From Rotaria socialis (lineage: Eukaryota), in contig CAJNYT010000219.1 in assembly GCA_905331485.1 (NCBI GenBank), forward strand, positions 1-49,272: 49,272 nucleotides of DNA. Reading direction: 5' to 3'. The notes under the pieces are model-generated. The model saw only the letters and a list, made by a program, of their open reading frames with translations, was not told where the DNA came from and did not search any database. Each line of letters starts with the position of its first letter. The stretch's first letter is position 1. The position numbers were made by a program, and so were the translations under genes. Of the stretch, positions 3,268-27,778 are shown piece after piece.

Positions 3268-3328
3268 AGGGTATGCGTGTCGGTGTAGATGTTATTTAGT
3301 TATTTTTGCACAATCACACCCACACCCT
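3268..3328. repeat. Inverted telomeric-repeat junction (degenerate G-arm, spacer, C-arm)
   Basis: G-arm agggtatgcgtgtcggtgtag (3268-3288); C-arm cacacccacaccct (3315-3328). Confidence 0.7.
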
Positions 3329-3360
3329 CAAGAAGTTAAGAAAAAGATGTTTAATAATTT

Positions 3361-3555
3361 CTAAGTTTTGCTCGTCAAAGCTTTGCTCGCATGTTGAATG
3401 TTCTTCTTAACTTTAATGATTGCGTGATGATTGTCTTCAAATGTTTTGTGGTAAATAAGCAAAGCTTTTAAAAAACAATGGAAGGTTTGCGGATAGTTTC
3501 CAGTTGAAAAATGAATACTTCCTGTATTGTTGTAAATAAAATCAATAACAGGGCC
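3361..3555 (-). pseudogene. 3-prime terminal fragment (last 64 codons plus stop) of a TPR-protein gene, truncated at a telomeric tract
   Basis: The minus-strand translation VIDFIYNNTGSIHFSTGNYPQTFHCFLKALLIYHKTFEDNHHAIIKVKKNIQHASKAL aligns with the C-terminus of the ART-TPR protein at 25833-27707 (ATYNNIGSVYLCKGDYAKALENFEIALNIGLKSLPADHEHIQTYRENIKHAKERI). Upstream of this point the ORF is only a translation of the telomeric hairpin at 3559-3620. Confidence 0.7.
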
Positions 3556-3558
3556 TTG

Positions 3559-3620
3559 AGGGTGTGGGGTGTACATATATTTATCACCTATAAATACACA
3601 TCCACACCCACACCCACACC
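3559..3620. repeat. Inverted telomeric-repeat junction
   Basis: G-arm agggtgtggggtgt (3559-3572), 23-bp AT-rich spacer, C-arm acacatccacacccacacccacacc (3596-3620). Confidence 0.85.
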
Positions 3621-4127
3621 AACGATAAAAAAGGATATATAACTGTATAAATTTATCAAACAAGACTCGATGTAATACCATTTGTGTCTGAAACTGTTTT
3701 TACTTTTTTCAGAGAGCTCATATTCTAACCAAGTTTACCATTGTAAATGGTAATTAGCAACAAAGTTTAATAAGGTTATGCCATACATGGTTTTACTCAT
3801 CGATTCAAATAGTTCTCTCTCTCTCTCAAGTTAGATTAGGAAGTTCTTCTGATTAGAATTTGACTTTCTGCGTCGATTTGTACAAGCAGATTTTTCTATA
3901 GCACATAATTAGTTTCAAGTAGTACCGTTTGATCGCTCTTGGGTGTTCCTGTATTAATGGTTTTGAGCGGAACACAAATCAACATTCACATCTACAACCC
4001 ATTCGAAATATTTACAAGCCCTGTTGTTTTTTTTTGTGAAGTTTATAATAGAGGTCAATAACGACGAAAACATCACACACACAATCTTGTTTATTTAAAT
4101 CTTAATAATGTAGATTCTGGTGGGGGT

Positions 4128-4156
4128 TCTTTTCACGCATACCCTCCCCCCCCCCC
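4128..4156. repeat. G5 ... C11 homopolymer inverted pair (same G-first polarity as the telomeric junctions)
   Basis: ggtggggg ttcttttcacgcatacc ctccccccccccc. The C run of 11 is at 4146-4156. It is followed by (CT)n at about 4184-4200. Confidence 0.7.
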
Positions 4157-4279
4157 ACTAAACCCTAAATTTCTGTCTCCCCGTCTCTCTCTCTCTCTCT
4201 GTGTTGTCGATAAATCAATATGTAGTCTTGTTTTTAACAGTAGCATCCAGTCAAAACTAGTGTGATAGTATTTCGGTGA

Positions 4280-5362
4280 TCAAATTGATCTATCTATTAC
4301 TTGGTTGTTTCTTGGGCCTGTACCTATCAGCACCACAGGAATGCCTGTTTCACGTTCCATCATTTCTATATACTGCTTGGATTTTTCTGAAAGCTGATCA
4401 TATTGTGTGATACCAGCATCATCATAGTTGATATACTGTATGAAGTTAACTGCCAATTTGTTAACACCTGTCAGTTTCACTGCACGTTTGATACGATTCA
4501 CATCAATTTCAAATACCCGTCGTAATTTCTTAGTAACAGTTGTTAATTCTTTCGAAGAAAATGTCCCAATAGGGGCACCTGCTCGTTGTTCTACTTCTTC
4601 CCATGTGATTTCTTTTCCACCATCCCCTGAATATGCTTCACCTCCATCAGATTTAGCCATGTCATTAGAAATACGAATTGGATATGTACGAATGACACCA
4701 TAGATATCTCGAATATGTTTCGGAGGAATACCGTTATCTGAAAGTCCTTGCATTGGTGAACATTCTCTGCTGGTACAATGTGGATATTGAAAACCATGAT
4801 TAATACCTAATTCAAAACCTTGTGCTATTTCTAAAATACCTGTTTTTCCTTGTTCCAAATCATCGCAAGCCATTTCAGCTGTGTCTGCCAAAAAATTCGA
4901 CCACTCTCGAATGTCATGCATTAATTTATGATCTGGATGCCGCATTACTTTGAATGCACTAGCTGCACCAACACCTTTAAATGTACTTCCAGAGCGTATA
5001 TTCTCCTTTTCCCAATCACGATGTGTTTGTTGGATAACCGATGCTCTTGGATGAATAAAAAGACGGCCTTTTGCTTTTTCTTTGCCGCCAAGATACTGAT
5101 CAACTTCATTTTCAAGCTGTACCAAATCGATAACAGCGCCAGCACCTATATATAATTTCGTACTATCATTAATTAACGCTTGTGGCAACTGTTGGAAAAC
5201 ATATTTGGTGCCATCTTGTTTTATTACCGTATGACCTGCTTGTACACCATAGCTTTCAATAGCAAAATCATATTTGTGCTTTGTAGCTAAATATCCACCA
5301 ATAAGTCCTTTCCCGCACGATCCAAAGCAGAGATCAAGAATAATATCCAACGATCGTTCCAT
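4280..5362 (-). CDS. Adenylosuccinate synthetase family protein, short form (360 aa), PurA/PurZ-like, intronless
   Basis: Uninterrupted ATG..TGA ORF. By-eye alignment to E. coli PurA (query / PurA):
- LDLCFGSCGKG / LGTQWGDEGKGK (P-loop)
- QAGHT / NAGHT
- GSTFKGVG / GTTGRGIG
- EIAQGFELGINHGFQYPHCTS / [21 protein letters not shown]
- TTVTKKLRR / ATTGRRRR
- IGTGPR / ISTGPD
The P-loop Asp is replaced (GSCGKG). The TKLD guanine-specificity motif aligns to NFIQ. Confidence 0.85.
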   Translation of the reverse strand: MERSLDIILDLCFGSCGKGLIGGYLATKHKYDFAIESYGVQAGHTVIKQDGTKYVFQQLPQALINDSTKLYIGAGAVIDLVQLENEVDQYLGGKEKAKGRLFIHPRASVIQQTHRDWEKENIRSGSTFKGVGAASAFKVMRHPDHKLMHDIREWSNFLADTAEMACDDLEQGKTGILEIAQGFELGINHGFQYPHCTSRECSPMQGLSDNGIPPKHIRDIYGVIRTYPIRISNDMAKSDGGEAYSGDGGKEITWEEVEQRAGAPIGTFSSKELTTVTKKLRRVFEIDVNRIKRAVKLTGVNKLAVNFIQYINYDDAGITQYDQLSEKSKQYIEMMERETGIPVVLIGTGPRNNQVIDRSI

Positions 5363-6850: not shown

Positions 6851-6863
6851 ACATTTTATCACT

Positions 6864-6958
6864 GGGCGTGGGTGTGGGTGTGTGGATGAAGCAGAGAATA
6901 TGCAACACCCACACCCACACCCACACCCACACCCACACCCACACCCACACCCACACCC
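6864..6958. repeat. Inverted telomeric-repeat junction with the longest tract, (ACACCC)9
   Basis: G-arm gggcgtgggtgtgggtgtgtgga (6864-6886), 18-bp spacer, then nine perfect ACACCC units (6905-6958). Confidence 0.95.
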
Positions 6959-7575
6959 TGGTATTGCACGAAGTCTAGCACACTTCGAAACTTCTAAATG
7001 GTTTCACTCGTTAGTATGATTATAAATGCTTCTTTTGAAAGAGGTGAATAATAAACCCTTCTAATCAAAATATGATATTTACAACTCTAACTCTTAATTC
7101 TGTCTCATTTTTTTATGATGTACATTAAATAGATCAAAAAATGAGCATTGAAAAATATTTTAAAGACAAAAAGAAAATATTATTAAAATTCGAATAAAGA
7201 ACACTTGCCGAATTTAACCTTACAAATTCCACTGTTAAGCCACACATTTGCATTATGTTTGAAGAAAACAAATAAAATTTAAAATGAACATCTGGTTTAT
7301 TGAATATGTGAGTGAGAGAAAAGACAGCGCATAACTTATTTGTTAAACTGATAGATTGAAAAAAAAGAAAACCCTTAAAATGATCACTCTATCAATAAGT
7401 ATATGAATGCAGTGACGAATTCGAAAGTACCAAAAATTGGTAACATGCAGTAGAACGCATAGGCGCAGAAATTATTCAAAAATTGGATAGTCACTACATA
7501 ACAATTTTCGGGATTATATGCAAGCAGGTAACACAAAATATAAACATATCGTAAATTAAAAACACTAATAATAAA

Positions 7576-9954
7576 TTAGACTTCTTTAAATAATATTCCG
7601 TAGGGTCGAACATTCTGTGAATTGTTACACGTCCATATATCTCGATTGTGCTTTGCGATCGAACTATTATTAATTCTCACTTGAAACATAACTTGCAATT
7701 GTCGGCCATTGTATGGTGTTGGCCTAGAGTAGTGTCTACTCCCGGAATATGATGGATTAGGCGATAAATATATGCCTCGACCATGAGCAGAACCATTAAC
7801 AATAGGTATCCCATTACTACCTCCAGCAATTAAACCATTACGTAGTATAGCTAAAGCATTGGCAGTTGCAGTACCATGATAAGCTACAGGCCATGCATCT
7901 TTGCCCTCCGCTAGCCATTCAGCATTTTCATATTTTCCAAGTACTTTAATAGCCTTTCTATACCATCCGCATGGCCTTGTATAAGGTTCTGGTCCACGTT
8001 GAAAAGTTCGACCGGCATCATTTCTTGTTGTAAAATCGTAGTCGTAAGTGCTATCAAGAAACTCTTCATCTAGCATAACACGATTTACAAAACGATTAGT
8101 CCGAGCAGTAGCACTTGAAAAATGTGGAATATAAGCTGCAATTGAACTCTGATTGTATTGATAAAATCGAACGTTTTGATCATCTTCCCATCGATTTATA
8201 TCATTATCAATATTCCAATAACTTAATCGAATACTTTCAGGACATGTATATTCAGATGGTTCATTTATTATTAATAGTGGACAATGCTCTTTTTTATCAC
8301 TAAATTGAATATGATCAGCTTTGAAATGAATAACTGATATAATTCGATTATAATTTTCTTCTAATGTTCCTTTGTCCGGTACATAATCTTCGTTTTTCCA
8401 TACAGTATTTGGTAAGGATTTACTTACTACGGACTTTGATTCTGATTCTTGTGCTATTTTATATTCCATTATTCGAGAAGAATAATACATAACAGCATTA
8501 CTTTCATACATATCAGCCTTTTCACACTGAGGACACTTTATTTTTACAGTAGAATTAGACTCTTGTTTAATGGTTGATGTTAGTTTATCATTTAATCTTT
8601 TACAGCACTGGTAACAAAATAAAGCTGAACAATTTGGATTAAGACATAATCTATGTTTTTCAGGTATTAAACGACAATATAAACATTCTAAAGCCGAAGT
8701 TCCTTCCATTTCAAATTTATCAATAATTTTTGATTTACGGTATTCTGATAATCGAACTTTCTTGTAACATGTTGGACAATGATGTTCATGATTTGTATTA
8801 TCACAACTGGATTCAATACAAATGCGACAAAATACTTGTGTACAATATGGGCATTCTAAATTATCATCATTAAGTTGTGATAAACAATTTAGACATTCAG
8901 GTTTATCTATGAAAATTAATGAAGATGTTGACGGTTTATTAATTAAAGTAGCTGAATTAAAATCCGTTTCAACTGCTTGTGCTAAATTAGTTTCATTGGA
9001 TGGCGTTTCTTTTTTTGAGGATATAATTGGATTTGACTGAGTAGGATTTATTTTCTTAATGTTAACTTTATCAATCTGATTATTCAATTCATTGATTTTT
9101 GTTGATATCTTCATCCAATTGCATGATGATTTTAAATTATCGATCAAGAAATCGTTGCTCCCAATAGAAATTGTTGTTGATTTTTTATTTCCAATTGTTT
9201 GTTTTGCTTGCTGGGCGGATTTAATCACATTGATGGTCTCAACTGGAAACATTAAAATAATTGTATTATTATCCAATCGAGCTTCACATTCATAATTTAT
9301 TATAGCAAATTTATCCTTATTGATGTCTGAAACTTTTTGACAGCGATCACTAGGTTGGACTGCATTAATCTGAGATGACCCTATATCTCCGTCGACGATA
9401 GTATCAGGCTGAATATTAAATTTTAATTGAACAATAGAACCAGGATTAATTCCTAAATCCAACATTGGAATATATGCATTTTTATTTAATGAGTAATATT
9501 TTCCATTAGCCATAATTCCTTGCGCATAGCGACCGTCGCAACATCTTACTTTACAAAATTGAGATAACAATAAACGATCATAGGGTAATGCTATTAATAA
9601 TGGATAATCATATATTTGGACTGATTTGAACATGGCCGTTTTTATTAATTTAATATGTGACACGTCAGCATTAGCTGAAATGAATATTTTTTCTAGTAAT
9701 TCAAAGTAATTTTCTACATTCATTGTAATTTTTTCTGATAAATGATTAGTTTGAATCATTTTACCAATATGTTGACATAATTTATTATATCTGAGTGGAT
9801 GAATTAATTGGGACGAAGGAATAATTCCCATTTTAATTTCAGTTATTGGCCAATATCTGAGATCTTGATCTTTACTAACAGCGCTAATAGGTTTATTATA
9901 ATCAGAATTTTCACTTTCTAATTGATTAGTGTTATCGGCAATTAAATGAAACAT
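7576..9954 (-). CDS. 792-aa protein: two Cys/His zinc-finger modules (RING/IBR-like) plus a C-terminal ADP-ribosyltransferase-fold (H-Y type, PARP/NEURL4-like) domain
   Basis: Single uninterrupted ORF starting at ATG.
- Zinc modules: CLNCLSQLNDDNLECPYCTQVFCRICIESSCDNTNHEHHCPTCYKK and CLYCRLIPEKHRLCLNPNCSALFCYQCCKRL...KCPQCEK.
- C-terminus: RPCGWYRKAIKVLGKYENAEWLAEGKDAWPVAYHGTATANALAILRNGL...AHGRGIYLSPNPSYS...VRPYGILFKEV. This shows the His (xYHGT) and Tyr (GxGIYxS) signatures of the PARP-type ART fold. Confidence 0.65.
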   Translation of the reverse strand: MFHLIADNTNQLESENSDYNKPISAVSKDQDLRYWPITEIKMGIIPSSQLIHPLRYNKLCQHIGKMIQTNHLSEKITMNVENYFELLEKIFISANADVSHIKLIKTAMFKSVQIYDYPLLIALPYDRLLLSQFCKVRCCDGRYAQGIMANGKYYSLNKNAYIPMLDLGINPGSIVQLKFNIQPDTIVDGDIGSSQINAVQPSDRCQKVSDINKDKFAIINYECEARLDNNTIILMFPVETINVIKSAQQAKQTIGNKKSTTISIGSNDFLIDNLKSSCNWMKISTKINELNNQIDKVNIKKINPTQSNPIISSKKETPSNETNLAQAVETDFNSATLINKPSTSSLIFIDKPECLNCLSQLNDDNLECPYCTQVFCRICIESSCDNTNHEHHCPTCYKKVRLSEYRKSKIIDKFEMEGTSALECLYCRLIPEKHRLCLNPNCSALFCYQCCKRLNDKLTSTIKQESNSTVKIKCPQCEKADMYESNAVMYYSSRIMEYKIAQESESKSVVSKSLPNTVWKNEDYVPDKGTLEENYNRIISVIHFKADHIQFSDKKEHCPLLIINEPSEYTCPESIRLSYWNIDNDINRWEDDQNVRFYQYNQSSIAAYIPHFSSATARTNRFVNRVMLDEEFLDSTYDYDFTTRNDAGRTFQRGPEPYTRPCGWYRKAIKVLGKYENAEWLAEGKDAWPVAYHGTATANALAILRNGLIAGGSNGIPIVNGSAHGRGIYLSPNPSYSGSRHYSRPTPYNGRQLQVMFQVRINNSSIAKHNRDIWTCNNSQNVRPYGILFKEV

Positions 9955-10016
9955 AATTAATTGTAAAACTGAAATGGACTCATTTTCTGATAATAGTGTT
10001 TTTGATTCTTTACGTT

Positions 10017-10688
10017 CTAATAATAATAATCGGATTTATGAATAATTAATAATCGAAATGGTGGTAATGCAACACGATTTAATCGAAAAGAAAGTTTTAA
10101 AATTTCTTCGTATAATTCTTTTGCTTCATTTTCTAATGAAATCATTATATTTTCATATACTAATACATAATCAGCAAGATCAACAGGTATTGTGTCAATG
10201 TTATCACTATATAGTATAGTGGATAATATCAGATGAGCTGCACCAATAGTCATAGATTTCGGCAACCAAATCGATTTTAATTGACTATTTTTTGTTGTAG
10301 AAGATAATGAATTTAATGATTTAACTGAATAAATTTCATATTTAACCATACCAGCATCAGTGGTCTGATTTATATTATTAACAGTAATAAAATTACTAAA
10401 AGTTGTATAGAGATCATTGACAAATTCGTGTAAGATTGGATTGCCTTTTAAGTCTAAGACTTTTGTTTGTGCTTGTTGTTGAGATTTCTCAATTGTTTCT
10501 TTAACTATTTTACCGTGATCTTTTGATGAAAATGAATTAAAACAATACTTTTCACTTTCAAATAATGCTTTTAATATATTGACAGTTGTTGGGGTGTCAT
10601 AGATAATATTACTTATTGTGTTGTTTCGGTTATTCGCATTAAGATCATTAGTATCGCTTTGATTGGGAACAGTGGAGGAATTACCCAT
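10017..10688 (-). CDS. 223-aa protein of unknown function with an N-terminal myristoylation-type motif (MGNSSTV)
   Basis: ATG-initiated ORF on the same strand as the zinc-finger-ART gene, ending 62 nt upstream of it. No domain recognised by eye. Gly2 plus Thr6 fits the MGxxxS/T pattern. Confidence 0.45.
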   Translation of the reverse strand: MGNSSTVPNQSDTNDLNANNRNNTISNIIYDTPTTVNILKALFESEKYCFNSFSSKDHGKIVKETIEKSQQQAQTKVLDLKGNPILHEFVNDLYTTFSNFITVNNINQTTDAGMVKYEIYSVKSLNSLSSTTKNSQLKSIWLPKSMTIGAAHLILSTILYSDNIDTIPVDLADYVLVYENIMISLENEAKELYEEILKLSFRLNRVALPPFRLLIIHKSDYYY

Positions 10689-11449
10689 TTTTTATTCGTT
10701 CGTAGGCAGAAAATCTGAAATTGTAGTCAAACTATAAAAGTAATACTAACATCGGATTAACTATAAAAATTTTGTGCTAATGATTCGAACAGAAACTCTT
10801 CTAATCGTCGTCCTTCTTCTATCTTAAGAAATTAAAAGACAAAAAGACCGCTTGATAACAGATAAAGAAGAATATTAAAATAAATAGAAGGATGTTTTCA
10901 TATTATCTAATCATTGCTGCTAGATCCTAATAGATATATTTGGCATTTGAATAGATAATTTTAACTTGTGTTCAATATCATATAACACTGTTGTATGGAA
11001 AAAATTTTTATTGCCAACGAAAAATCGTCAACCCACTTGTTTGAACAAGAATTTAAATATTTCAATTTTTTATTGTAGTGTTTTTTATGGGTCACCCTGT
11101 ATATAAACGAAACGAAAAGAAAAATGTAATATGAATCATTACTAACAACAAGAGACATGAAGAGAAACTCAAGGACACGCATATATAGTGAAATCTATAA
11201 TAAAGAAAGTACCAATAGTCTCCTCTGAACACAGTACAGATCATAACTATCTAATATAGATGAATAAATTATGAATATATCAGTGGCTGGCATGTGTAAG
11301 ATTTGCATAACTTGATGCAACCTAATTCACATATTCTTCAGTTCTATCTGAGTCGATTGAATGTAAAAGCTTTTCAGAATAAAGTAAAAATCATGCCAAC
11401 TTTAAAAAATTATTTCCTATGTAATGTTAACTGGCTGTCTCTTGTTTCA

Positions 11450-11508
11450 GCGGATGTGGATGTGTGTGCGCTATCTTTAACCCAGCCTACGCCCACACCC
11501 ACACACCC
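11450..11508. repeat. Inverted telomeric-repeat junction
   Basis: G-arm gcggatgtggatgtgtgtgcg (11450-11470), spacer, C-arm cgcccacacccacacaccc (11490-11508). Confidence 0.8.
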
Positions 11509-11542
11509 TTATGATACTTGACGTCTCTTATTGATCCTTGTA

Positions 11543-12551
11543 TTAGAGATCTGAGCTACGTAAACTCCAGAGTTTAATTATCCATTTGTTTGCGATTTCA
11601 TCAAAGTGGCACGATGTTACCTTAGCAGGAAAACCATCGAAAATCAAAAGTTCTTGTTCATCCGGATAATTTGAATATGGGGACATATCCAGAGAGCCGG
11701 TATCTTTTTCGAGGTCAATGACAAAAAGAAAGTTGCTGCCAAAGAATTCGGCCACGTTCGGATTAAGAGTAGTTGAGGTAAACGCCGGTAATTGGATTTT
11801 TCTTTCAGAGACAACGCATAGTCGAAATTGTTCAATTTGTTCGTTAGTCATCGTTGCTCCTCGATATACTATCATATTAGTGGGAGTAAAATTCATAGCT
11901 GAATTCAATAGTACAGCAAATGGGCCGTTTGGCCATCCATTCACCTTCTCGTTGCTTCCCCACCTTTTTCGCTTCGATTATAAATCCTTCCGCTGCCTTT
12001 TCTATCCACATCTCAAGTACTGACTGACAAGTGATACCTTTCTCCCAACCAACGCCGTAATGAGAACAAGCTTCTTGAACAAAATCAGGAGTTGTTGGTT
12101 CAATTTGCCAGTTTATGAAACTGTTCGAAGGCAAAACTGAATCTTCCAAGAAACGTTCCGCTCTTACTCGTTTCTCTCGTTCATCCTTGTTACGATCAAC
12201 TATACGTTTCACTGGCCGTTGTTTCTTTTCGTCATTATTAGAGATTTGCATAGAACGTGCAAAAACGATATGATAGTCGTCGAGAAGAGCTTCTGGTAAG
12301 CCTTGTTGGAATGCTTCTTCGATGATTTCAGTTTCTACATCGGTGTATTTTCGCCATTCAGCAGGTTCTGCAAAACAGAAAGGAAGCGCATTAGATTGCC
12401 ACAGCCACTCTATATACTGCTTGGCAATCAATGCAGTAGTAGTCATATACGCAACGACCAAACGGTAGCAGTAAAGATTAGATGTGATAGTAAAAAGAAA
12501 GAAAATGAAAGATATATTTCGTTTCATTATTGACTCTTTTTGTTGTTCCAT
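11543..12551 (-). CDS. WWE domain plus R-S-E (arginine-type) mono-ADP-ribosyltransferase, 2 exons (12551-11945, 11898-11543)
   Basis: - N-terminal part: YIEWLWQSNALPFCFAEPAEWRKYTDVETEIIEEAFQQG...YHIVFARSMQISNNDEKKQRPVKR matches the WWE pattern (W-W...W-x-Y...E-x-A...Q...R-x-V-K-R).
- C-terminal part: VYRG (Arg), FTSTT (STS) and PDEQELL (ExE) ART motifs.
- The two ORFs overlap in different frames. A 46-nt GTGAAT...TTCAG intron (11899-11944) joins them in phase, giving 963 nt = 320 aa. Confidence 0.8.
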
Positions 12552-12797: not shown

Positions 12798-12868
12798 AGG
12801 GTGTGGGTGTGGGGTGTGTAGAGGTGGATGTGTGAGGTGATGCTTCTCTTCACTCACACTCACACCCT
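12798..12868. repeat. Inverted telomeric-repeat junction, preceded by a GC-rich CCTGTCCTG/CAGGACAGG hairpin (12752-12797)
   Basis: G-arm gagggtgtgggtgtggggtgtgtagaggtggatgtgtgaggtg; C-arm cactcacactcacaccct. Confidence 0.8.
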
Positions 12869-13386: not shown

Positions 13387-13510
13387 GATGTGGGGAGTGT
13401 GGTGTGGGTGTGGGTGGGTGTGGGTGTGAGTGTGTGTGAATCGCCAAACAAAACACCTATAGGGCACCCACACCAGCACCAACTCACGCCCATACACCAA
13501 CACCCACACC
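13387..13510. repeat. Inverted telomeric-repeat junction (long, degenerate arms)
   Basis: G-arm ggatgtggggagtgtggtgtgggtgtgggtgggtgtgggtgtgagtgtgtgtg (13387-13438); C-arm cacccacaccagcaccaactcacgcccatacaccaacacccacacc (13465-13510). Confidence 0.85.
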
Positions 13511-14461
13511 AGAGACCGTCACAGGGCAGGGCAAAAGTTTTTGCCCTGCGCCCTGATAATTTTTCCTATAAACTGATATACAGCATATTTTTCAGTAGAT
13601 TATGCTGACATGGTGATGGATTATAATGTATGTCATTATGCGCCAGTCACTGTGAAATTTGTTACTATGTCTAGTTCGGACAATACCAGTTTACTCATTT
13701 ATTATCATATAATTCAATTATAAAAATAAAATACTGCTTCTAAGAGAAATGCAAAACATGGTAGAATCATTTAATATTGTATAAGAGAACGAGCTAATTT
13801 AAGAATTATGTGTATGATGAGCTTTTTTTCTAAATGATTTCAGACATGAGCTTAGTATTCCAGAGGAAATTTCACTTGAAGATTCAACATGTTCTAATGG
13901 TAACTTTCTTCGCATGTTTTAGTTTTGTATGCTTAGTTCTCTATGTTTTAAATTATTTTCACTTGATATGAACTCGCCCGGTTTTACAAAATTAGAAGAT
14001 CTCTTATTTCATGATAAATCTTACCGCCCCATAATACACAATGAATCTCTTGCTACTGGTACATTTTGAAGAGTCTTTATTTACCCAGCACGATGAGTTG
14101 AGGAGAATACATGTGAAAGATTTACTTGATTTCTCACTTATTCAAATTATGTACATATTCAATCGCCAGATCACGATAAGCGCATTATTTTTGCAGTGAA
14201 CTGATTTTTGTGATAATCTTAATTGCTGTTTGCTACTCATACTTAATTATGTTTTCAGCGCATATCTATATTTTCTCGAATATAGATAAATAAAAATACG
14301 AGTACTTTACTTTTCAGCGGTTACAACATTTTCATTTAGTCTTTACCTTTTTCAATATTTCAGTTCAATTTATAATCACGCCCTGTCCTGCCCTGAGACA
14401 GGGCAGGATATAGCAGGGCGCAGGGCAGGACAGGGCAAAAAGTTGCCCTGTGACGATCTCT
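13511..14461. mobile_element. Non-autonomous element of about 950 bp with GC-rich CAGGGC-palindromic terminal inverted repeats, apparently inserted into the telomeric C-arm
   Basis: The left end is agagaccgtcacagggcagggcaaaagtttttgccctgcgccctg. The reverse complement of the right end is agagatcgtcacagggcaactttttgccctgtcctgccctgcgccctg. The interior is AT-rich with no ORF. C-strand telomeric sequence lies on both sides (..cacccacacc | element | gatccacaccc). Confidence 0.65.
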
Positions 14462-14472
14462 GATCCACACCC

Positions 14473-14530
14473 AGCTTTTGTTAAATTATTTATTAAATGC
14501 CAAGATTTATTTTTTCTGATCGATAGAATG
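14473..14530. repeat. Second copy of the 57-bp unit at 619-675
   Basis: Starts immediately after the solo telomeric C-arm ccacaccc (14465-14472). Confidence 0.8.
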
Positions 14531-16377: not shown

Positions 16378-17900
16378 ATGCAGCTGGTCGATTTACTTGA
16401 TGAGTTAATTTTAATTATCATGTACAAAGTGAAACCTAAAGTGTTATTGCTTTGTTCTACTATCACTATTGATAATAATCGTTTAGCAAAACTTGCACTT
16501 GATATGTATCATTCAATTGATTTAACTTTTAAGTATTTTCAATCACCATATCAATTTATTATTCCACGTTTTTACACACATTTTATGCCTTGTATCATTA
16601 ATAATATTCAACTTACACATTAGGTAAACTATGATTAACTATCGCTTTAGTTCATTTTCTACTTATAAAATAAGATAAATTCTTATTTTTTCAGAATTAA
16701 AAAAAAAGAACTCTACTTTAAATATAGAAGATTCAAGTGGCTTTTTAGGAACATTTAAGCAGAAAAGATGTGAGACTTTTTTAAGTATTCATTGCGATAA
16801 AAACTTTATGATCAAAATTGTGTTCCTTAAAAATCTTATATTTCGATCATAATACATTTAAAAAGAAGGAACCATTAGATGATATGCTAGTCTACTAGCC
16901 TCCTATCTCTGACCAGAATATGAGCTTTAAACATTATAATAACCTGGTTGATTCTTCTTCTCCTTAGATATTCCTAAAAAACAACTCGAATCTTCTGTAT
17001 TTCGAGTGGAAGTCGACAAAAACCTTTTCCAAAAAAATGGTTGAATACCGATGATTTTACCCTTCTGATAAAATCTATACTTAGGAAAACATTGATATTT
17101 GTATATATTATTAGGCAATAACCTTTACTGTGTTTCGCGGTGTTTTACTCTCTTCTCAAATATACCTCAATTTTCTGTACGTACTGGATAAGAGCAATAC
17201 TGCTCGCACTTGATCTAAATTCTTTTGTTCACTATCTGTGTCTTCTATTGTATCTTTCGAATTGGATGATGATTGTATTTTAAAAAATATATTTTAAAAT
17301 GGCGATGATTTAATTTTTCCTGAATCAATCCATCTGACTCTTATTCGAATAATATTATTTGAATTCGAACGTTGCATTTTTTTACTTAATCAATTGGGCT
17401 CATAATTATGTTCATTCGTTGTAAGTGTGTGGTGTTTGTTTCTGCATCAGATGTTGGTATTTTTTCTAAAATTAAATCAGTAAGCAATATTTAGTAATTG
17501 CAAATCTCATTTAATTAATTCATAAAGATTTCATGTCCTAATTTGAAACGATTGGCAATGAAAATTTGTTTCTTCCTGTTTTACAATGTTGATCAAATTT
17601 CGAATATTTAATATTATTATTAGCTATTGAATTCAAAAGAAATACACCCAAACGTTTTATTGATGGATTTGATTTGGATAAACACATTATTTTATGCATG
17701 CCTCATTTATGTCAATTTCATATTCGTTCAATATTACCAAATGCTGCTCATGTAGAAATCGAGAATGAACTTGAGCGACAAGAAAAAATAGAAACGACAA
17801 CAAATAATCTTGAATTTACTCATTTAACTACTCTGATTTTATTTGATATTCATTTGGATTATGCTGAACAATTACTTTGTCGAAGCCATTTTCCTTCTCT
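16378..17900 (+). pseudogene. Decayed F-box-like / leucine-rich gene
   Basis: - ORF 16378-16623 begins LVDLLDELILIIMYKVKPKVLLLCSTITIDNNRLAKLALD (F-box-like LxxLPDEILxxIF...N-x-R-L pattern).
- ORF 17674-17916 ends ...LEFTHLTTLILFDIHLDYAEQLLCRSHFPSLI.
- The 1 kb between them has leucine-rich stretches in several frames, interrupted by stops. Confidence 0.35.
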
Positions 17901-18885: not shown

Positions 18886-19505
18886 TTCTCAATAGCATAT
18901 GAGCGCATGCGGTAAGTCTTTTTCCTGAAAAACTCTTCCACTCATTCTCTGCAAATGGCACTTGTACTTTTCCGCGGCACAATCAAACACATCATTTAGT
19001 ACGAGCAATGTCGTAATCAGTTTTCCTTCCCGTTTCGCCATATTTCAGTCCATGAGCATCGCGAAAAATAAAGTACGCTGAAGGATGGACTAGTAGACGT
19101 TTTGATTGTAAACGATCAGTATTATTCATGTATAGAAAACGATTTTAGAGAATATTAATTATGCTGAATATTTACTTATAAACAATCAAAAGCACAACGA
19201 AACCTTGTCAAACCGTTTTCTATACATGAATAATACTGATCGTTTACAATCAAAACGTATAATAGTCCATCCTTCAGCGTACTCTATTTTTCGCGATGCT
19301 CATCGACTGAAATATGGTGAAACTGGAAGGAAAACGGATTCCGACATTGAAACATGTAAATGGAATAATATGTTTTTGAACGCTGCTCGTGCTAAATGAT
19401 GCGTTTGATTGTGCCACTGAAAACTACAAGCGTCAATTGCAGAGAATGAGTCGAAGAGTTTTTCAGAAAAAAGGCTTACCATATACGCTCATATGCTGCT
19501 GAGAA
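18886..19505. repeat. Long imperfect palindrome, arms 18886-19142 and 19213-19505, spacer about 70 bp
   Basis: The reverse complement of the right arm matches the left arm almost throughout (ttctcagcagcatatgagcg.. / ttctcaatagcatatgagcg.. ; ..gattgtaaacgatcagtattattcatgtatagaaaacg in both). The right arm carries an extra segment of about 35 bp. Confidence 0.9.
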
Positions 19506-20126: not shown

Positions 20127-20198
20127 TGACCTTCATGGAGATCGAACCCATACCTTCTGCTATCCAGGCAGATGTCCTACCAGTTAGACTAGAAGAAC
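20127..20198 (-). tRNA. tRNA-like sequence (probable tRNA pseudogene or tRNA-derived element), nominal anticodon GGA
   Basis: Minus strand: GTTCTTC TA GTCT AACTGGTA GGAC A TCTGC CTGGATA GCAGA AGGT ATGGG TTCGATC TCCAT GAAGGTC A. The cloverleaf is drawable and has A-box-like and B-box-like (GGTTCGATC) motifs. Anomalies: a U2-U71 mismatch, G53-U61 in place of G-C, a pyrimidine at position 37, and a Ser anticodon without the long variable arm. Confidence 0.3.
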
Positions 20199-20771: not shown

Positions 20772-21250
20772 TTTTATTGGGTGCGGGTGTGTAAGAAACT
20801 ACCACGACGCTTTTCGACTGATGCTTAGTCAGTCTCATCAGGTGACTTAGTGTCTCTAGTTCGATTCAAAAAAATTTGAACAAAAAAATTCAAAATCAAT
20901 TCGAGAATATTATTCTGCTCTAATTCACGATGAAGTAGAATGGTAATATCTTGATGGTGTGGGTGTGTATTAAGTTTAGAAATTAACTACAACTAGTTTC
21001 GATTTTTCTGATGGGTCTTCATCAGATGGTTTAAGCGCTGTATAAGATATCAAATTGAAAGGAAAATTTCAAAAAAAAAATTCCTGGAACTTTTAATATC
21101 AAAGCAAAGAAGAGAATTCTCAACACTTAGTACAATGCTTGATCCAAAGATCATTGCAAAATACTTAGAAGAACTAAAAGTGTACGCGGAAGTGAAATTT
21201 TTAGCTAAAATAGACAAGCGAGTGTGAGAAGAATAATCATAGTAAATTTT

Positions 21251-21303
21251 GAGGATGTGGGTGTAAGCAATCTTTGTATTAACAATCCCACTCACACCCA
21301 CAC
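21251..21303. repeat. Inverted telomeric-repeat junction
   Basis: G-arm gaggatgtgggtgt, 22-bp spacer, C-arm cccactcacacccacac. Confidence 0.8.
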
Positions 21304-23097: not shown

Positions 23098-23162
23098 TTG
23101 TGTGTGGGTGTGGGTATGGGCTGATCATGAGTCAGATAGGCACCTGCACCCACACCCACCCT
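23098..23162. repeat. Inverted telomeric-repeat junction
   Basis: G-arm ttgtgtgtgggtgtgggtatggg, 26-bp spacer, C-arm cacccacacccaccct. Confidence 0.85.
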
Positions 23163-24861: not shown

Positions 24862-24954
24862 TGGGTGTGGGTGTGAGATGTGGGCGGGCATAATTTTGAT
24901 TGTGCGTACATGAGACAATAGAATAATATTCATACCCACAACCACACCCACACC
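24862..24954. repeat. Inverted telomeric-repeat junction
   Basis: G-arm tgggtgtgggtgtgagatgtgggcggg, 45-bp spacer, C-arm acccacaaccacacccacacc. Confidence 0.85.
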
Positions 24955-25438
24955 GATTTAACCATAAACTCGCTGATGGAATTAGTTAGGCATTCTTTTT
25001 TGAAATTATATTTATTTCAAAGCAAATTTTGAAATTATTATTTTGTTGTCAGGTAGGACGATTATTGAAACTCTAGAGTTAAGACTAACAGATTGATTTA
25101 TATGAAAGACATACGGATAGGAATTCACTAGTACAGTCGGACTGGTACACCCACCTTCAATCTCATCCCCAGTCTGACCCTTCGAGTGGGGAACCCAAAA
25201 CGGTCCCGTTCCGGATGGGACTGAATTCGGAACCAAAAAATAATTTTTTGTGGAACCGGGACTAAATACTTTTTTAGTCAGTCCCGAGCAAATTTTTTAA
25301 AGAAAAAAAATCGTCTATAGTACTTGGTTCTTTTATTTTCAAGAAGTAATTTCACTATTTTCCCTTTCATATATTTTATAATACAAGAAAATCTTCACAA
25401 ATAAATATTCAAAATTTTAAAACAACACGATAAACTTG

Positions 25439-25495
25439 AGGGTGTGGGTGTAGACTGAATTAAAAACAGCGTATCCACATCGACACCCACACCCA
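25439..25495. repeat. Inverted telomeric-repeat junction
   Basis: G-arm agggtgtgggtgt, 21-bp spacer, C-arm atccacatcgacacccacaccc. Confidence 0.85.
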
Positions 25496-25832
25496 AAATA
25501 GAAGTGTGTTTCAGAAAATCGGGACCTGGACTGAAAAAAATTAGTCGGGCTTGGGATGGGATCGGGACCAAAAAGGGTGGTCCCTCATTTCCCTACCTTC
25601 CAGAGATAAGGCTTTATTTTGAAACTAGTTTTTGTATGCAAACTCACATGTTGTAAAATGTTTTTTTTTATTCTGTGCGATGATAATATTAGGAAAAATA
25701 GATAAGAGAAATTGCGTTGTACAGAATGAAATAAGCACAACGGAAAAATTATTTATTTTAATATTTGATATTCAACACAAGAAGACAGGCAAAAATACAT
25801 TATATTTTAACGAAAATTCATTTTAGGAGTTC

Positions 25833-27707
25833 ATGACTTCATTAACGAAAAATCTTGAAGGTCTGACTATTGTATGGCTTGATGTTGATCGTATTCATCA
25901 AAACACCGATGATTATTTTGATACGAAAAATCGTCTACGACAATGCAATAATTATATAGAAATATATCATGATCCAAATGAGTGTATTCATGGTATAATA
26001 GCGAATGGATACGTTTTTCTAATCGTTTCTGGTTCAATCTGCGAAACATTTATTCCGCTGATTTTTGAAATCAAACAGATCGTATTTATTTACGTTCTAT
26101 ATTCGGATAATCAATTGACGGACACCTGTGAACTAAAAACTATTTCAAAACTTCATGGAATATTCTCAAGTAAAAACCAACTTATTGAAAAACTGAAACA
26201 AGACGTCAAATCATATTTGAAGAGTTTGCCACTAACATGTATCGTCAATGAAAAGTCAATTCGTGCTTTAAACAAAGAATATTCTACGTTTATGTGGACT
26301 CAATTGCTTATGGACGTTTTAATTCAAATACCTCAAACAGATCGTGCAAAAATGATGATGTTAGAAGATTGCCGATTGCATTATGCTGATAATAAAGCTC
26401 AATTAGATGATATTAACGAGTTTCAAGAAAAATATGAACCAGACTTTGCAGTTTGGTGGTATACACGTGAGAGTTTCGCATATAAACAATTAAACCAAGC
26501 ACTACGTACACAAGATATTGACATTATTTTTAAATATCAATTTTTTATAAGAGATCTTTATGTACTATTGAAAGAATTATATGAAGAATCTATGCCATCC
26601 TTAGAAGAAATATCGATTGTCTACCGTGGCCAACATATCAATTGTGATGAATTGGAAAAAATAAAAAATAATGTGAACGGTCTTATTTCAATGAATTCAT
26701 TTTTATCAACAACTCGAAACAAGAATCGAGCTTTAATATCCGCCGGTGATGGTTCAAATAGGCCCTCGCTTGAATCCATCTTATTTGAAATTACGATTAA
26801 TAAAAATGTTGCTGCTAAAACTAAACCATTCGCTGACATTACAAAGATGAGTCAATTTGGCAAGGCAGAAGAAGAAATACTATTATCGATTGGAAGTATA
26901 TTCAAGATTCAGTCAGTTGAACAGTTAGCTGAAAATGCTCATGTTTGGGACGTTAAGCTAATATTAAATGAATCAGTGGTGATTAATGAAATAGACATGT
27001 TATTCAATTATTTCAAAATGAATTCAACTACAAGTATATCGAATGTCGGTACATTAGGTTTACTATTAGGAGAGATGGGAGAATATGAAAAAGCGGAAAA
27101 ATATTATCAAATGATGCTTGATGAATTATCAACAGATCATTGCGGAGTTCCAATAATATTAAATAATATGGGAGTATTATACAATGATATGGGTAATGAT
27201 GAAAAAGCATTAGAATATTATAAGAAATCATACGAAAGTTATAAAATGCAAAACGTATCAGAAAATGATCTTCTCTTAGCGAATTTATATCATAATATGG
27301 GTTCATTGTATTATGAAAATGAGTATAATAAAACAGCATTGAAATATTTTAAAAAAGCTTTTAAAATTTGTAATAATAATTCTACGCTACCCAGTCTTTT
27401 ATTATCTGCAACATTATATACAGACGTGAGTGGAATATATCAAGATAATGAAGATTCTGTTAATGCATTGGATCAGTTGCAACACACATTTGAAATCCAA
27501 AAAAGAATTCTACCATCAACTCATTTCAGAATCGCTGCAACATACAATAACATAGGAAGTGTTTATCTTTGTAAAGGAGATTATGCAAAAGCATTAGAAA
27601 ACTTTGAAATAGCCTTGAATATTGGATTAAAATCTTTGCCAGCCGATCATGAACATATTCAAACATATCGTGAAAATATAAAACATGCTAAAGAAAGAAT
27701 AAAGTAA
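25833..27707 (+). CDS. 624-aa R-S-E ADP-ribosyltransferase domain protein with C-terminal TPR repeats
   Basis: Single ATG..TAA ORF.
- ART motifs: VYRGQ (Arg), FLSTT (STS), GKAEEEILL (ExE).
- C-terminal third: repeated TPR-type units (NNMGVLYNDMGNDEKALEYYKKS, YHNMGSLYYENEYNKTALKYFKKA, YNNIGSVYLCKGDYAKALENFEIA).
- An AATAAA at 27698-27703 overlaps the end of the ORF. Confidence 0.85.
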   Translation: MTSLTKNLEGLTIVWLDVDRIHQNTDDYFDTKNRLRQCNNYIEIYHDPNECIHGIIANGYVFLIVSGSICETFIPLIFEIKQIVFIYVLYSDNQLTDTCELKTISKLHGIFSSKNQLIEKLKQDVKSYLKSLPLTCIVNEKSIRALNKEYSTFMWTQLLMDVLIQIPQTDRAKMMMLEDCRLHYADNKAQLDDINEFQEKYEPDFAVWWYTRESFAYKQLNQALRTQDIDIIFKYQFFIRDLYVLLKELYEESMPSLEEISIVYRGQHINCDELEKIKNNVNGLISMNSFLSTTRNKNRALISAGDGSNRPSLESILFEITINKNVAAKTKPFADITKMSQFGKAEEEILLSIGSIFKIQSVEQLAENAHVWDVKLILNESVVINEIDMLFNYFKMNSTTSISNVGTLGLLLGEMGEYEKAEKYYQMMLDELSTDHCGVPIILNNMGVLYNDMGNDEKALEYYKKSYESYKMQNVSENDLLLANLYHNMGSLYYENEYNKTALKYFKKAFKICNNNSTLPSLLLSATLYTDVSGIYQDNEDSVNALDQLQHTFEIQKRILPSTHFRIAATYNNIGSVYLCKGDYAKALENFEIALNIGLKSLPADHEHIQTYRENIKHAKERIK

Positions 27708-27722
27708 TCGAATATTAATAAT

Positions 27723-27778
27723 GGGGTGTGTGGTGTGGGTGTGGATATGATCCAGACTGGAAAATTCACCCACACCCA
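27723..27778. repeat. Inverted telomeric-repeat junction starting 15 nt after the ART-TPR stop codon
   Basis: G-arm ggggtgtgtggtgtgggtgtgga, 21-bp spacer, C-arm cacccacaccca. Confidence 0.9.

Follow-up and report, generated by a model that had tools for sequence, protein, structure and literature searches.

The DNA analyzed here, a contig stretch of 49,272 nucleotides (hereafter the window), is subtelomere-like DNA from the bdelloid rotifer Rotaria socialis. Its genes are interspersed with tracts of the rotifer telomere repeat, TGTGGG (PMC7943196, PMC8494291). The genes and hexamers considered below are as follows.

3350–3355, minus strand: ATTAAA, 21–22 nt before the tract in the sense of the TPR fragment
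3361–3559, minus strand: 5'-truncated TPR gene fragment (about 66 codons plus stop)
4280–5362, minus strand: short adenylosuccinate synthetase gene (360 aa), stop codon 656 nt from H2
7576–10688, minus strand: PARP-domain gene (3113 nt, two ORFs), stop codon 617 nt from H3
11527–11532, minus strand: AATAAG, a non-canonical hexamer 18 nt before the tract in the sense of WWE-ART
11543–12551, minus strand: WWE-ART gene, two overlapping ORFs
25833–27707, plus strand: ART-TPR gene (624-aa single ORF; Pfam TPR_12 and related families)
27698–27703, plus strand: AATAAA, 19 nt ahead of the G arm of H11

Inverted pairs of telomeric tracts

Allowing two mismatches per 12-mer, we called 17 G-type and 17 C-type telomeric tracts in the window, compared to 0–3 per strand in shuffled sequence. 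Each tract is one half of an inverted pair, in which a G-tract is followed by a spacer of 13–58 nt and then a C-tract. The window holds 12 such pairs.

H1, 3269–3328: degenerate G arm 3269–3290, C arm 3315–3327; z −3.68
H2, 3560–3623: left junction preceded, at 19 nt, by a plus-strand AATAAA that belongs to no gene
H3, 6864–6958: G arm 6864–6885, spacer, 56-nt canonical C arm adjoining the PARP 3' flank
H4, 11452–11508: degenerate G arm 11452–11472 on the PARP side, C arm 11492–11508 on the WWE-ART side
H5, 12799–12868: upstream boundary of the WWE-ART segment; 98% identity in R. magnacalcarata
H6, 13392–13511: long, degenerate arms
H7, 21254–21303: head-to-head pair
H8, 23100–23161: head-to-head pair, also carried by loci L001 and L002
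H9, 24863–24954: head-to-head pair, also carried by L001 and L002
H10, 25440–25494: upstream boundary of the ART-TPR segment; z −5.16
H11, 27723–27778: G arm 27723–27744, 22-nt spacer, C arm 27767–27778; RNA fold −27.5 kcal/mol, z −3.25
H12, 39771–39827: head-to-head pair

All 12 closely adjacent tract pairs in the window show the G-to-C order, and none of the 12 shows C-to-G. The pairs divide the window into segments that read C...G on either strand, so any gene has a G-tract downstream in its own sense. They are not an assembly artefact: they are present in independent R. socialis assemblies, are kept (with substitutions) in R. magnacalcarata, and the same structure is seen in Rotaria sp. 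Silwood1 and Silwood2 and in low-GC metagenome contigs. Segment contents vary. The 12-kb segment has PARP and VIT/VWA genes on the plus strand and, on the other, a glycosyltransferase gene that is broken into two ORFs; the 7.4-kb segment has an intron-containing caspase gene and a tRNA-Ser gene; and some pair-bounded segments have no recognizable gene.

Palindromic units of 50–120 bp, with TTGA...TCAA recurring next to the arms, bring to mind a small foldback transposon, that is, MITE-like copies with telomere-like TIRs inserting near gene ends. We consider this origin extremely improbable, the synteny breaks already contradicting it. Internal sequences are all different, and comparison of the spacers with each other revealed no relatedness beyond chance; arm lengths run from 12 to about 180 nt; and the two flanks of a pair are not contiguous in relatives, synteny breaking at the pairs.

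Gene ends and poly(A)-like hexamers

Three segments end close to a stop codon. The ART-TPR protein exactly matches an annotated R. socialis protein on NCBI contigs, and its TAA (27705–27707) lies 15 nt before the G-tract that begins at 27723. H11 is identical in two other R. socialis assemblies. The AATAAA here is coding, specifying the final Ile-Lys codons, and is not conserved, the Silwood1 homologue having GACTGAAC and Silwood2 AATAAG at this position. In a paralogue (L015), AATAAA starts 5 nt before the end of the stop codon, and no telomeric tract is nearby.

For WWE-ART, the C arm of H4 (tract 11492–11508) lies 34 nt past the TAA at 11543–11545. The gene is intact in R. magnacalcarata (354 aa, single exon; L079, gene 2908–3972), and relative to it the window copy lacks 158 nt (a gap in the blastn alignment), causing a frameshift. 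The window copy is thus apparently a pseudogene. The AATAAG is identical in R. magnacalcarata, and H4 is kept there at 97% identity. The TPR fragment fills a 230-bp segment between H1 and H2, which is also present in R. magnacalcarata (L085, 88.7% identity). Its TAG (3361–3363) is followed 33 nt later by H1 (tract 3315–3327), the junction reading CTTCTTGA/GGGTGTGGG in the sense of the fragment (slashes mark junctions throughout), and ORF 3361–3681 reads through H2.

A preliminary description of this DNA had placed the ART-TPR and WWE-ART junctions where we find them, and set the end of the TPR tract one base too far, at 3328 rather than 3327. The gaps between hexamer and tract (19 nt for ART-TPR, 18 nt for WWE-ART and 21–22 nt for the TPR fragment) are near the 18–21 nt it gave. 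Its "cassettes" do end in added telomeric repeats, three of them 15–34 nt past a stop codon. The first of its two readings was that they may have passed through an RNA or cDNA intermediate: mRNAs would have been cleaved at the poly(A) site and copied, with telomeric repeats in place of the poly(A) tail. The gaps equal the usual distance from signal to cleavage site, the ART-TPR, WWE-ART and TPR genes are intronless, and the spacing is nominally enriched in the window: 3 of 24 segment ends have AATAAA or ATTAAA 18–21 nt upstream (P about 0.0025 given a background of 1.14% per position, the interval having been picked post hoc, after the data were seen). The spacing is thus weakly above chance in the window. 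One of the three counted ends is that at H2 (below), the hexamer of ART-TPR is coding, and that of WWE-ART is non-canonical.

Other observations run counter to the cDNA proposal. Equal spacing is found at H2, where no gene is served by the AATAAA upstream of 3560 (it lies antisense to TPR coding sequence), so that H2 acts as a control for chance. Beyond the window, the enrichment vanished in a set of 39 independent junctions drawn from further Rotaria loci and from metagenome contigs of rotifer-like character: a hexamer lies at 18–21 nt in one (0.49 expected) and at 10–30 nt in one (2.4 expected). At one locus (L040) a real 157-aa ORF ends 17 nt before the junction with no hexamer, and at another (L085, below) the PARP gene is cut by a tract inside its coding sequence. 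Segments keep 234 to about 760 nt upstream of start codons; for ART-TPR, these 234 nt are covered by the Silwood1 alignment described below. The same boundaries surround multi-gene, intron-bearing, tRNA-bearing and gene-free segments, which no single mRNA could yield, and no poly(A) remnant was found at the junctions. ART-TPR, WWE-ART and TPR are single-exon in every close copy seen, so the missing introns say nothing about a cDNA origin. The orientation of the G strand, which the preliminary description had noted, is correct in that the G-tract comes first after the gene, but it is uninformative, since it follows automatically from the inversion of the pairs. Calling it opposite to an Athena-like arrangement was incomplete, as a C-tract in the Athena-like orientation lies 13–58 nt beyond each G-tract. 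A cDNA origin is already largely contradicted, and we regard it as very improbable.

Junctions in related genomes

Alignment of the ART-TPR region to Silwood1 (80.6% identity) stops at 27723; Silwood1 carries 170 more non-telomeric bases beyond the matching position, and its 3' flank is unrelated to the right flank of H11. Similarly, the Silwood1 alignment upstream of PARP ends at 11449, while the Silwood1 DNA goes on for about 800 nt. Silwood1 DNA is thus uninterrupted past both junctions tested (27723 and 11449). The exact coincidence of homology loss with these two junctions indicates that they are lineage-specific DNA truncations.

The PARP gene provides a second view of junction change. 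It is intact in other R. socialis assemblies (1037 aa, single exon, 3114 nt), and the window length of 3113 nt, not a multiple of 3, implies a 1-nt indel, which would account for its division into two ORFs. Across the window and two R. magnacalcarata loci, the junction 3' of PARP occupies three positions. At L087 it lies about 656 nt past the stop codon, the PARP flank being 40 nt longer than in the window; the H3 spacer and the arm on the adenylosuccinate synthetase side are kept, and an extra pair and a segment of about 320 nt intervene at the H3 site. In the window the junction is 617 nt past the stop codon, the tract is longer (a perfectly canonical 56 nt) and a segment of about 0.4 kb is lost. 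At L085 the junction falls inside the coding sequence (...AATCGTGT/GGGTGTGGG), with a 122-nt canonical tract followed by a spacer and C arm. Judged from these alignments, the PARP junctions record repeated events at the DNA level.

An Athena-like retro-addition could also move genes together with their repeats. A gene beside a pair would be transcribed through it, giving an RNA that ends in G arm, spacer and (ACACCC)n; this C-rich tail would anneal to a telomeric G-overhang, and the RNA would be copied onto the chromosome end by a reverse transcriptase supplied in trans, either telomerase or one of Athena type. After capping by telomerase, the cDNA, possibly 5'-truncated, would have inherited the near arm and spacer and gained a new far arm. 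A second R. socialis copy of WWE-ART (96.6% identity) has this form: it agrees with the window copy in its 3' end, in the near arm and in the 18-nt spacer, but its far arm is canonical and its flank is unrelated and carries core genes. The 230-bp TPR segment likewise resembles a 5'-truncated copy retaining its 3' end and pair. Gene 3' ends point the same way in 7 of the 8 segments with a recognized gene; the four leftmost segments share this direction, as do the caspase, tRNA and glycosyltransferase genes. This polarity and the second WWE-ART copy also fit RNA-mediated addition. Athena and Terminon elements have C-rich 3' tails and capture host genes (PMC6431247, PMC5537684), and introns can survive Penelope-type copying (PMC3846280).

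Other data are difficult to reconcile with retro-addition. Neither a hammerhead ribozyme nor a reverse-transcriptase ORF was found in the window, the 12-kb segment has genes on both strands, and the ART-TPR segment has the opposite polarity. At H3 the spacer has remained with the flank toward adenylosuccinate synthetase, although the PARP junction is shifted by 40 nt and a segment is gone; retro-addition predicts the opposite inheritance. Moreover, the near arm would still require earlier healing at the DNA level, and the second WWE-ART copy is explained equally well by break-induced replication or by annealing to a telomeric tract inside the chromosome. We therefore view retro-addition as rather unlikely.

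Origin of the pairs

With moderate confidence, we favor the view that the pairs are scars of broken chromosome ends that were capped and then rejoined. Breakpoints and added repeats can be read directly at the junctions. Counting back from the first GGG in 56 junctions, the commonest bases at positions −1 to −5 are, in turn, A (36 of 56), G (28), T (31), T (26) and C (19), a microhomology signature (CTTGA/GGG) that fades with distance from the tract; the left junction of H10, AACTTGA/GGGTGTGGG, is an example. How these ends were joined, in what sequence the steps took place and whether selection acted is our inference, as follows. Telomerase would first cap an end with a short (TGTGGG)n tract, starting where the last bases of the end pair with the RNA template of the enzyme, and this pairing would account for the signature. 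Capped ends would then be joined head to head with other capped ends, or a capped end might anneal to the complementary strand of an internal telomeric tract. The scar left would be a G-tract, a short unique spacer and a C-tract. Several points count against healing and joining. Plain telomere-to-telomere fusion should leave no spacer, and all pairs have one of 13–58 nt of non-telomeric sequence. The spacers are enriched in the pentamer AAGAG (10 of 44, versus 1.6 expected), a hint of some shared process. The common direction of most gene 3' ends and the second WWE-ART copy, both described above, weigh on the same side.

If the pairs arose by healing and rejoining, the tracts probably lie close to poly(A)-like signals as a side effect, and not as the trace of an RNA copy. 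Three segments would simply happen to end 15–34 nt past a stop codon, in AT-rich DNA where AATAAA-like hexamers are common. However, among six placeable 3'-facing gene ends, the distance from stop codon to junction is 15–34 nt in three and 617–698 nt in the other three; neither these two classes nor the 18–21 nt hexamer spacing is predicted by random breakage without added selection. Possibly, ends survive only where erosion halted just past a poly(A) signal that could still be used, the GU-rich repeat taking the place of the downstream element.

The downstream elements of poly(A) sites, bound by CstF-64, are GU-rich. Since the telomere repeat is GU-rich too, its putative reuse in 3'-end formation, the second reading of the preliminary description, is plausible: the (UGUGGG)n tract or its hairpin would act as the terminator, or as the downstream element, of an AAUAAA-like hexamer close by, and only truncations that recreate a working poly(A) site would keep the gene alive. 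Such reuse would add to healing and rejoining rather than exclude it. Along with the two distance classes, the hexamers 18–22 nt upstream of three gene-adjacent junctions and the predicted stability of the hairpins as RNA (RNA fold) speak for it. Yet, of the three genes, WWE-ART (158 nt missing) and the TPR fragment (5' part missing) are dead or decaying. Compared with R. magnacalcarata, H4 has changed at a higher rate than the DNA on either side, and just one pair of its substitutions is possibly compensatory. In L017, where a pair is duplicated, one arm differs between the copies with no compensating change. On balance, we think reuse unlikely, though it deserves some credence.

Arrangements of this kind have partial parallels elsewhere. 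Human 2q13 is an ancestral head-to-head telomere–telomere fusion, with a G-strand array followed by a C-strand array on one strand. There, as in the scars proposed here, G array then C array represents two chromosome ends joined; in Rotaria, however, the arms are 12–56 nt (occasionally about 180 nt), a unique spacer of 13–58 nt is always present, and there are a dozen sites in 49 kb rather than one. Ciliates and nematodes add telomeres de novo to developmentally fragmented chromosomes, near gene ends. The Rotaria segments are similarly gene-sized, with C-strand repeats on the left and G-strand repeats on the right and addition near gene ends, but they are concatenated in the germline genome and show no sign of programmed fragmentation. 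De novo addition at fragmented chromosomes in these groups is mentioned in PMC13564844.

In Athena and Terminon, telomere-attaching Penelope-like retroelements, units are strung together at rotifer chromosome ends with telomeric repeats between them, host genes lie captured between the units, telomeric repeats truncate units at the 5' end, and, read in sense, a folded structure is followed on its 3' side by a C-rich tract (PMC6431247). The window differs in lacking reverse transcriptase and hammerhead ribozyme, in having the G-tract first after the gene (so that repeats are inverted, not direct), and in that differences between sister species appear as DNA truncations. Also comparable are bdelloid subtelomeres, for which short telomeric stretches, TPR genes, foreign genes and a proposed role of break-induced replication have been described (PMC2861651), and the telomeric repeats at deletion breakpoints in A. 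vaga (PMC13564844). Shared features include the same (TGTGGG)n repeat, TPR and other repeat-protein genes, foreign-looking genes and structural polymorphism. The regular head-to-head G/spacer/C bracketing and the junction consensus are not described in those two papers; both may already have been described in the primary papers of 2007, 2008 and 2017. In bdelloid subtelomeres, as described in PMC2861651 and PMC13564844 (which also represent the work of Gladyshev and Arkhipova, 2007), such repeats mark former chromosome ends. Likewise, the window would be a mosaic of segments from a dynamic rotifer subtelomere, each segment end having once been a broken or eroded chromosome end.

Telomeric tracts and the segments between them

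(TGTGGG)n is the telomere repeat of rotifers (PMC7943196, PMC8494291). In the window, which has a GC content of ~33%, there are 17 telomeric tracts of each polarity, compared to 0-3 in shuffled sequence. Their layout is that of a G-tract, 13-58 nt of unique sequence and a C-tract. Counting a pair wherever a G- and a C-tract stand within 100 nt of each other, we obtained 12 pairs (H1 to H12, from left to right). All 12 show the G-then-C order, and zero cases of the C-then-G order were seen among window tracts at this distance.

Head-to-head telomeric pairs in the window
~3269-3328, H1
~3560-3623, H2
~6864-6958, H3
~11452-11508, H4
~12799-12868, H5
~13392-13511, H6
~21254-21303, H7
~23100-23161, H8
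~24863-24954, H9
~25440-25494, H10
~27723-27778, H11
~39771-39827, H12

At 24/24 ends of the segments (the DNA between two pairs), G-strand repeats are directed away from the retained DNA, as at sites of de novo telomere addition. Because a G/spacer/C unit stays a G/spacer/C unit when reverse-complemented, the segments of the window read from C-tract to G-tract on either strand and form a chain, like small linear chromosomes placed end to end. It follows that any gene, in any orientation, has a downstream G-tract in its own sense. The preliminary description had taken this sense-strand G-orientation as an argument, and as one that sets the window apart from Athena-like elements. The orientation is automatic from inverted pairs and carries no information, and a C-tract in the Athena-like orientation comes ~13-58 nt further on. 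Telomere-telomere fusion, in which a G-strand array passes directly into a C-strand array, matches the orientation of 12/12 window pairs, but these always carry 13-58 nt of non-telomeric spacer between the arrays.

Pairs recur in independent assemblies, and the five that were folded, including the three beside the focal genes (ART-TPR, WWE-ART and a truncated TPR fragment), form stable single-strand hairpins (z -3.3 to -5.2). Between R. socialis and R. magnacalcarata, the H4 arms show one T-A to C-G double change, possibly compensatory, and duplicated pairs in locus L017 differ without compensation; compensatory cases are too few to claim selection on arm pairing.

Genes were sought with a Pfam scan of 30 of the 36 window ORFs of at least 85 aa. 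Of the other six, three share sequence with scanned genes in antisense or in a different frame, one is the TPR-fragment ORF (3361-3681), and two measure 103 and 112 aa.

Genes in the window (Pfam, except the tRNA gene)
4280-5362, minus strand, adenylosuccinate synthetase, 360 aa, single-exon
7576-10688, PARP-domain protein
WWE-ART, minus strand
caspase-like peptidase, over two ORFs, intron-bearing
25833-27707, plus strand, ART-TPR
glycosyltransferase, over two ORFs
second PARP
VIT/VWA
EF-hand protein
20127-20198, minus strand, tRNA-Ser (GGA), inside a telomere-bounded segment (Rfam, 49 bits, confirmed by ARAGORN)

The ART-TPR ORF (624 aa) is identical to an annotated R. socialis protein and is present on several NCBI contigs of the species; window 1542-22465 is collinear with another R. 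socialis assembly at 99.86% identity. WWE-ART in the window is without 158 nt (site 11924-11926) present in the intact 354-aa R. magnacalcarata gene, and the TPR piece is a fragment of 66 codons; two of the three focal genes are thus under no obvious selection now. PARP measures 3113 nt, versus 3114 nt in other R. socialis assemblies (an intact 1037-aa gene), which implies a 1-nt indel. The WWE-ART and PARP defects represent either gene decay or errors of this assembly. Since 360 aa is shorter than expected for an animal adenylosuccinate synthetase, that gene may be horizontally acquired. Polymorphisms among R. socialis assemblies include an 88-nt deletion in L081 (versus window 7468-7554) and a 234-nt tandem duplication in L083 (window 17498-17731).

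The window also contains other repeats. Single unpaired G-tracts lie near the tRNA-Ser gene (20777-20792, 20952-20970). Two long inverted repeats (19006-19349 and 42532-42696) look like foldback or MITE-type elements and give weak plant microRNA-like Rfam matches; one is 140 nt long (94% complementary, with a 64-nt loop), the other 64 nt (89%). A perfect 16-nt inverted repeat, GCCCTGTCCTGCCCTG / CAGGGCAGGACAGGGC, occupies 14380-14436, with related GCCCTG-rich sequence beside H6 (13515-13560), and a weak telomere-like CCACACCC is found at 14462-14474. The motif CCAGAGA(C/T) occurs four times. It sits right at the C arm in H6 (13512-13520) and in locus L007 (8094-8103), closes a long degenerate C-rich stretch in the Silwood1 ART-TPR locus L003 (3744-3751), and is found again at window 25599-25606, ~100 nt from the H10 C arm, where homology between ART-TPR and Silwood1 starts.

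Poly(A)-signal-like hexamers at the gene ends

A junction is a segment end where a telomeric tract starts, and the three reported next to focal genes lie where the preliminary description had placed them.

Focal junctions
27698-27703, plus strand, ART-TPR: AATAAA; stop 27705-27707; G-tract from 27723; gap 19 nt
11527-11532, minus strand, WWE-ART: AATAAG (reverse complement); tract ends 11508; gap 18 nt
3350-3355, minus strand, TPR fragment: ATTAAA (reverse complement); tract 3315-3327; gap 21-22 nt

A strict AATAAA or ATTAAA stands 18-21 nt upstream at 3/24 window segment ends, and AATAAG at one more. Against a background of 1.14% per position, 3/24 corresponds to P ~0.0025, for an interval (18-21 nt) that was picked post hoc. 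One of the strict cases, upstream of 3560, belongs to no gene and runs antisense to TPR coding sequence. The AATAAA of ART-TPR is itself coding, specifying the final Ile-Lys; the Silwood1 homologue has GACTGAAC at that place, and in a paralogue that lacks any telomeric tract in its vicinity, the stop codon is likewise overlapped by AATAAA.

For an independent sample, we took homologous loci of other Rotaria species together with low-GC metagenome contigs found by a scan for the pair pattern, which gave 39 non-redundant junctions. High-GC metagenome matches, perfect palindromes in non-rotifer contigs and probably bacterial terminators, were removed by a GC threshold; a bacterial promoter/terminator scan was likewise set aside, the host being a eukaryote. 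No hexamer enrichment was seen in the 39 junctions: the 18-21 nt interval holds one hexamer where 0.49 were expected, and the 10-30 nt interval one where 2.4 were expected. Only one ORF ending beside such a junction is clearly real (157 aa, locus L040); it stops 17 nt before the tract and has no hexamer. The metazoan poly(A)-type pattern, an AAUAAA-type hexamer 10-30 nt upstream and GU-rich sequence downstream, is found at the three focal junctions and also at a gene-free site, and is missing from 38/39 independent junctions. Within spacers, AATAAA or ATTAAA occurs in 5 of ~46 independent cases versus ~3 expected, which is not significant.

The poly(A) spacing is at best a secondary effect. 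The position of three junctions near stop codons and hexamers reflects either chance in AT-rich 3' flanks or survivorship, whereby erosion would stop where a usable poly(A) signal persists and the GU-rich repeat may substitute for the downstream element. One caveat here is that the six gene 3' ends that could be placed fall into two classes, three at 15-34 nt from a junction and three at 617-698 nt, so a residue remains beyond the chance account. Putative reuse of the repeats for 3'-end formation would be compatible with the breakage account developed below; we consider it rather unlikely.

Junctions as DNA breakpoints

ART-TPR has its closest homologue in Rotaria sp. Silwood1, and this too is bracketed by pairs. 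The alignment to the window shows 80.6% identity, takes in 234 nt ahead of the start codon and ends exactly at 27723. Past the equivalent point, Silwood1 has 170 further non-telomeric bases and then its own pair, and the sequence beyond H11 in the window is unrelated to this 3' flank. The H11 spacer was considered as a remnant of the ancestral flank, and its local alignment score fell within the shuffle range. The Silwood1 PARP locus (L080) aligns as far as window 11449, the edge of H4, and continues in ~800 nt of unrelated DNA. In each of three comparisons, homology to an uninterrupted relative stops at the first repeat base (window 27723 versus L003, 11449 versus L080, and the R. magnacalcarata locus L085 versus window 8078, in PARP coding sequence). 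The sister species R. magnacalcarata is collinear with the window at 96-98% identity and keeps H4 and H5; these pairs are therefore inherited and old, and H4 has decayed by 4 changes in ~60 nt. The homologue in Didymodactylos carnosus (L010) shows 76.7% DNA identity across the ORF, which is odd between distant bdelloid families; it has no TGTGGG pairs, and a short (CTCACC)n-like stretch lies upstream of it (3366-3379). For WWE-ART, no homologue above 47% identity was found outside R. socialis and R. magnacalcarata, which precluded a flank comparison.

The 3' junction of PARP can be compared at three stages. In the R. magnacalcarata locus L087, the PARP flank is 40 nt longer than in the window and closes in its own pair, beyond which lies an additional segment of ~320 nt. 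The window lacks this material, and a perfectly canonical 56-nt tract links the shortened flank to the same spacer and the arm on the adenylosuccinate-synthetase side. In L085 (7018-7179), the break falls within the coding sequence of PARP (...AATCGTGT|GGGTGTGGG...), and a 122-nt canonical tract leads on to a spacer and a C arm; the telomeric repeats are read straight through in the public gene model (945 aa). From sequence comparison, then, the differences at the PARP 3' end are best read as gene-blind truncations with subsequent telomere addition and rejoining, not as poly(A)-site events. The extra small segment of L087 (6138-6550) contains 157 nt that are 90% identical to window 32330-32486, inside the 12-kb segment; fragments have therefore been reused between segments.

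The preliminary description had also proposed that the cassettes may have passed through an RNA or cDNA intermediate, capped by telomere addition where the poly(A) tail would be. A spacing like that of poly(A) sites had suggested it. ART-TPR, WWE-ART and PARP are single-exon in every close copy seen, so that lack of introns does not set the window copies apart; two more distant paralogues have one short intron. The cDNA reading is not supported. The three junctions have no A-run between 3' UTR and G-tract, and segments retain DNA upstream of the genes (234 nt for ART-TPR, ~760 nt for PARP). Elsewhere, boundaries of the same kind enclose multiple genes on opposite strands, a tRNA gene and a caspase gene with an intron, and several segments thus cannot be single transcripts. 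The cut within PARP coding sequence in L085, and gene-blind truncation generally, argue further against it.

The junctions have a signature of their own. In 56 junctions pooled from the window and loci L003-L080 (e.g. window 3555-3562, 25435-25442, 3326-3334), position -1 relative to the first GGG is A in 36/56, -2 is G in 28, -3 is T in 31, -4 is T in 26 and -5 is C in 19, giving a consensus CTTGA|GGGTGTGGG (CTTGA|GGG) that weakens with distance from the tract. ATCTTGA is frequent before the tract in moss-metagenome contigs. The consensus would fit extension of broken ends whose terminal bases anneal to telomerase RNA next to its template; it predicts, and may mirror, the template-adjacent sequence of rotifer telomerase RNA. 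Under this healing model, UCAAG would directly follow the CCCACA template on its 3' side. Spacers are mutually unrelated, and the longest words that they share do not exceed those of shuffles in length. AAGAG, a pentamer reading CTCTT on the other strand, is present in 10/44 spacers versus 1.6 expected (e.g. window 6886-6902, 12836-12850; loci L076, L030, L046).

Possible routes to a mosaic subtelomere

The segments differ from Athena/Terminon elements in three respects. Those elements have a hammerhead motif immediately upstream of reverse-complement telomeric repeats, whereas no hammerhead family matched when the full window was scanned with Rfam (E up to 1), and the pairs gave only weak microRNA-like matches far below gathering scores. 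Their unit includes an Athena-type reverse transcriptase ORF; no Pfam reverse transcriptase match was found among the scanned window ORFs (30/36). Finally, both flanking repeats share the same C-strand orientation in element sense, whereas the order in the window, in gene sense, is C-tract ... gene ... G-tract, spacer, C-tract.

WWE-ART has a second copy in R. socialis (96.6% identity), whose contig also carries KH-domain and radial-spoke genes. Both copies have the gene 3' end, the near (gene-side) arm and the 18-nt spacer in common; in the second, the far arm is canonical and the flank beyond it unrelated. Such a copy would result if a read-through transcript with its end in the C arm were copied onto a telomeric G-overhang, but telomere invasion or annealing at an internal tract with DNA copying would give it equally, and break-induced replication has been proposed for bdelloid subtelomeres (PMC2861651). 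At H3, moreover, the spacer stays with the neighbouring segment, contradicting the inheritance rule of the RNA model, and the segments that cannot be single transcripts weigh against it too. Retro-addition through the C arm appears improbable. Inversions and rearrangements apparent in scaffolds L081 and L084 of R. socialis fall at single-N joins and were not used; the joins (L081 8729; L084 7952, 11538), which belong to newer assemblies of the species, set a second, inverted WWE-ART beside the first, representing a real palindrome or a scaffolding error.

It would be a long shot that head-to-head pairs turn ordinary genes into mobile cassettes. A read-through transcript would end in a folded G arm and spacer, then a C-rich (ACACCC)n tail, the same 3' design by which Athena/Terminon retroelements attach to telomeric G-overhangs. 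Host genes, together with their near arm and spacer, could then be copied onto new chromosome ends by a reverse transcriptase supplied in trans, and the GU-rich near arm would also provide the downstream half of a poly(A) site. If true, the pairs would be a eukaryotic analogue of the hairpin recombination sites behind integron gene cassettes, and a mechanism for expansion of subtelomeric gene families in bdelloids.

The account that we favour, and judge probable, is one of repeated breakage and healing. Chromosome ends would break or erode repeatedly, telomerase would cap them at microhomology, and the capped ends would join head to head or anneal at internal telomeric tracts, producing a mosaic subtelomere. 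Interstitial telomeric stretches and neotelomeres are already known in bdelloids (PMC6431247, PMC13564844, PMC2861651), and in A. vaga new breakpoints have been sequenced following irradiation or desiccation (PMC13564844). The regular inverted-pair geometry, the junction consensus and the stage-by-stage comparison were not found in the part of the bdelloid literature surveyed. The window shows, base by base, a chain of segments joined via short telomeric tracts in one fixed geometry, and comparisons with the sister species and the second copy catch individual stages: a junction shifted by 40 nt, a segment lost, a gene cut in its coding sequence. Foreign genes and expanded gene families accumulate in bdelloid subtelomeres. 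Breakage or erosion, capping, and joining or annealing would provide a concrete model, testable genome-wide, of how DNA enters these regions.
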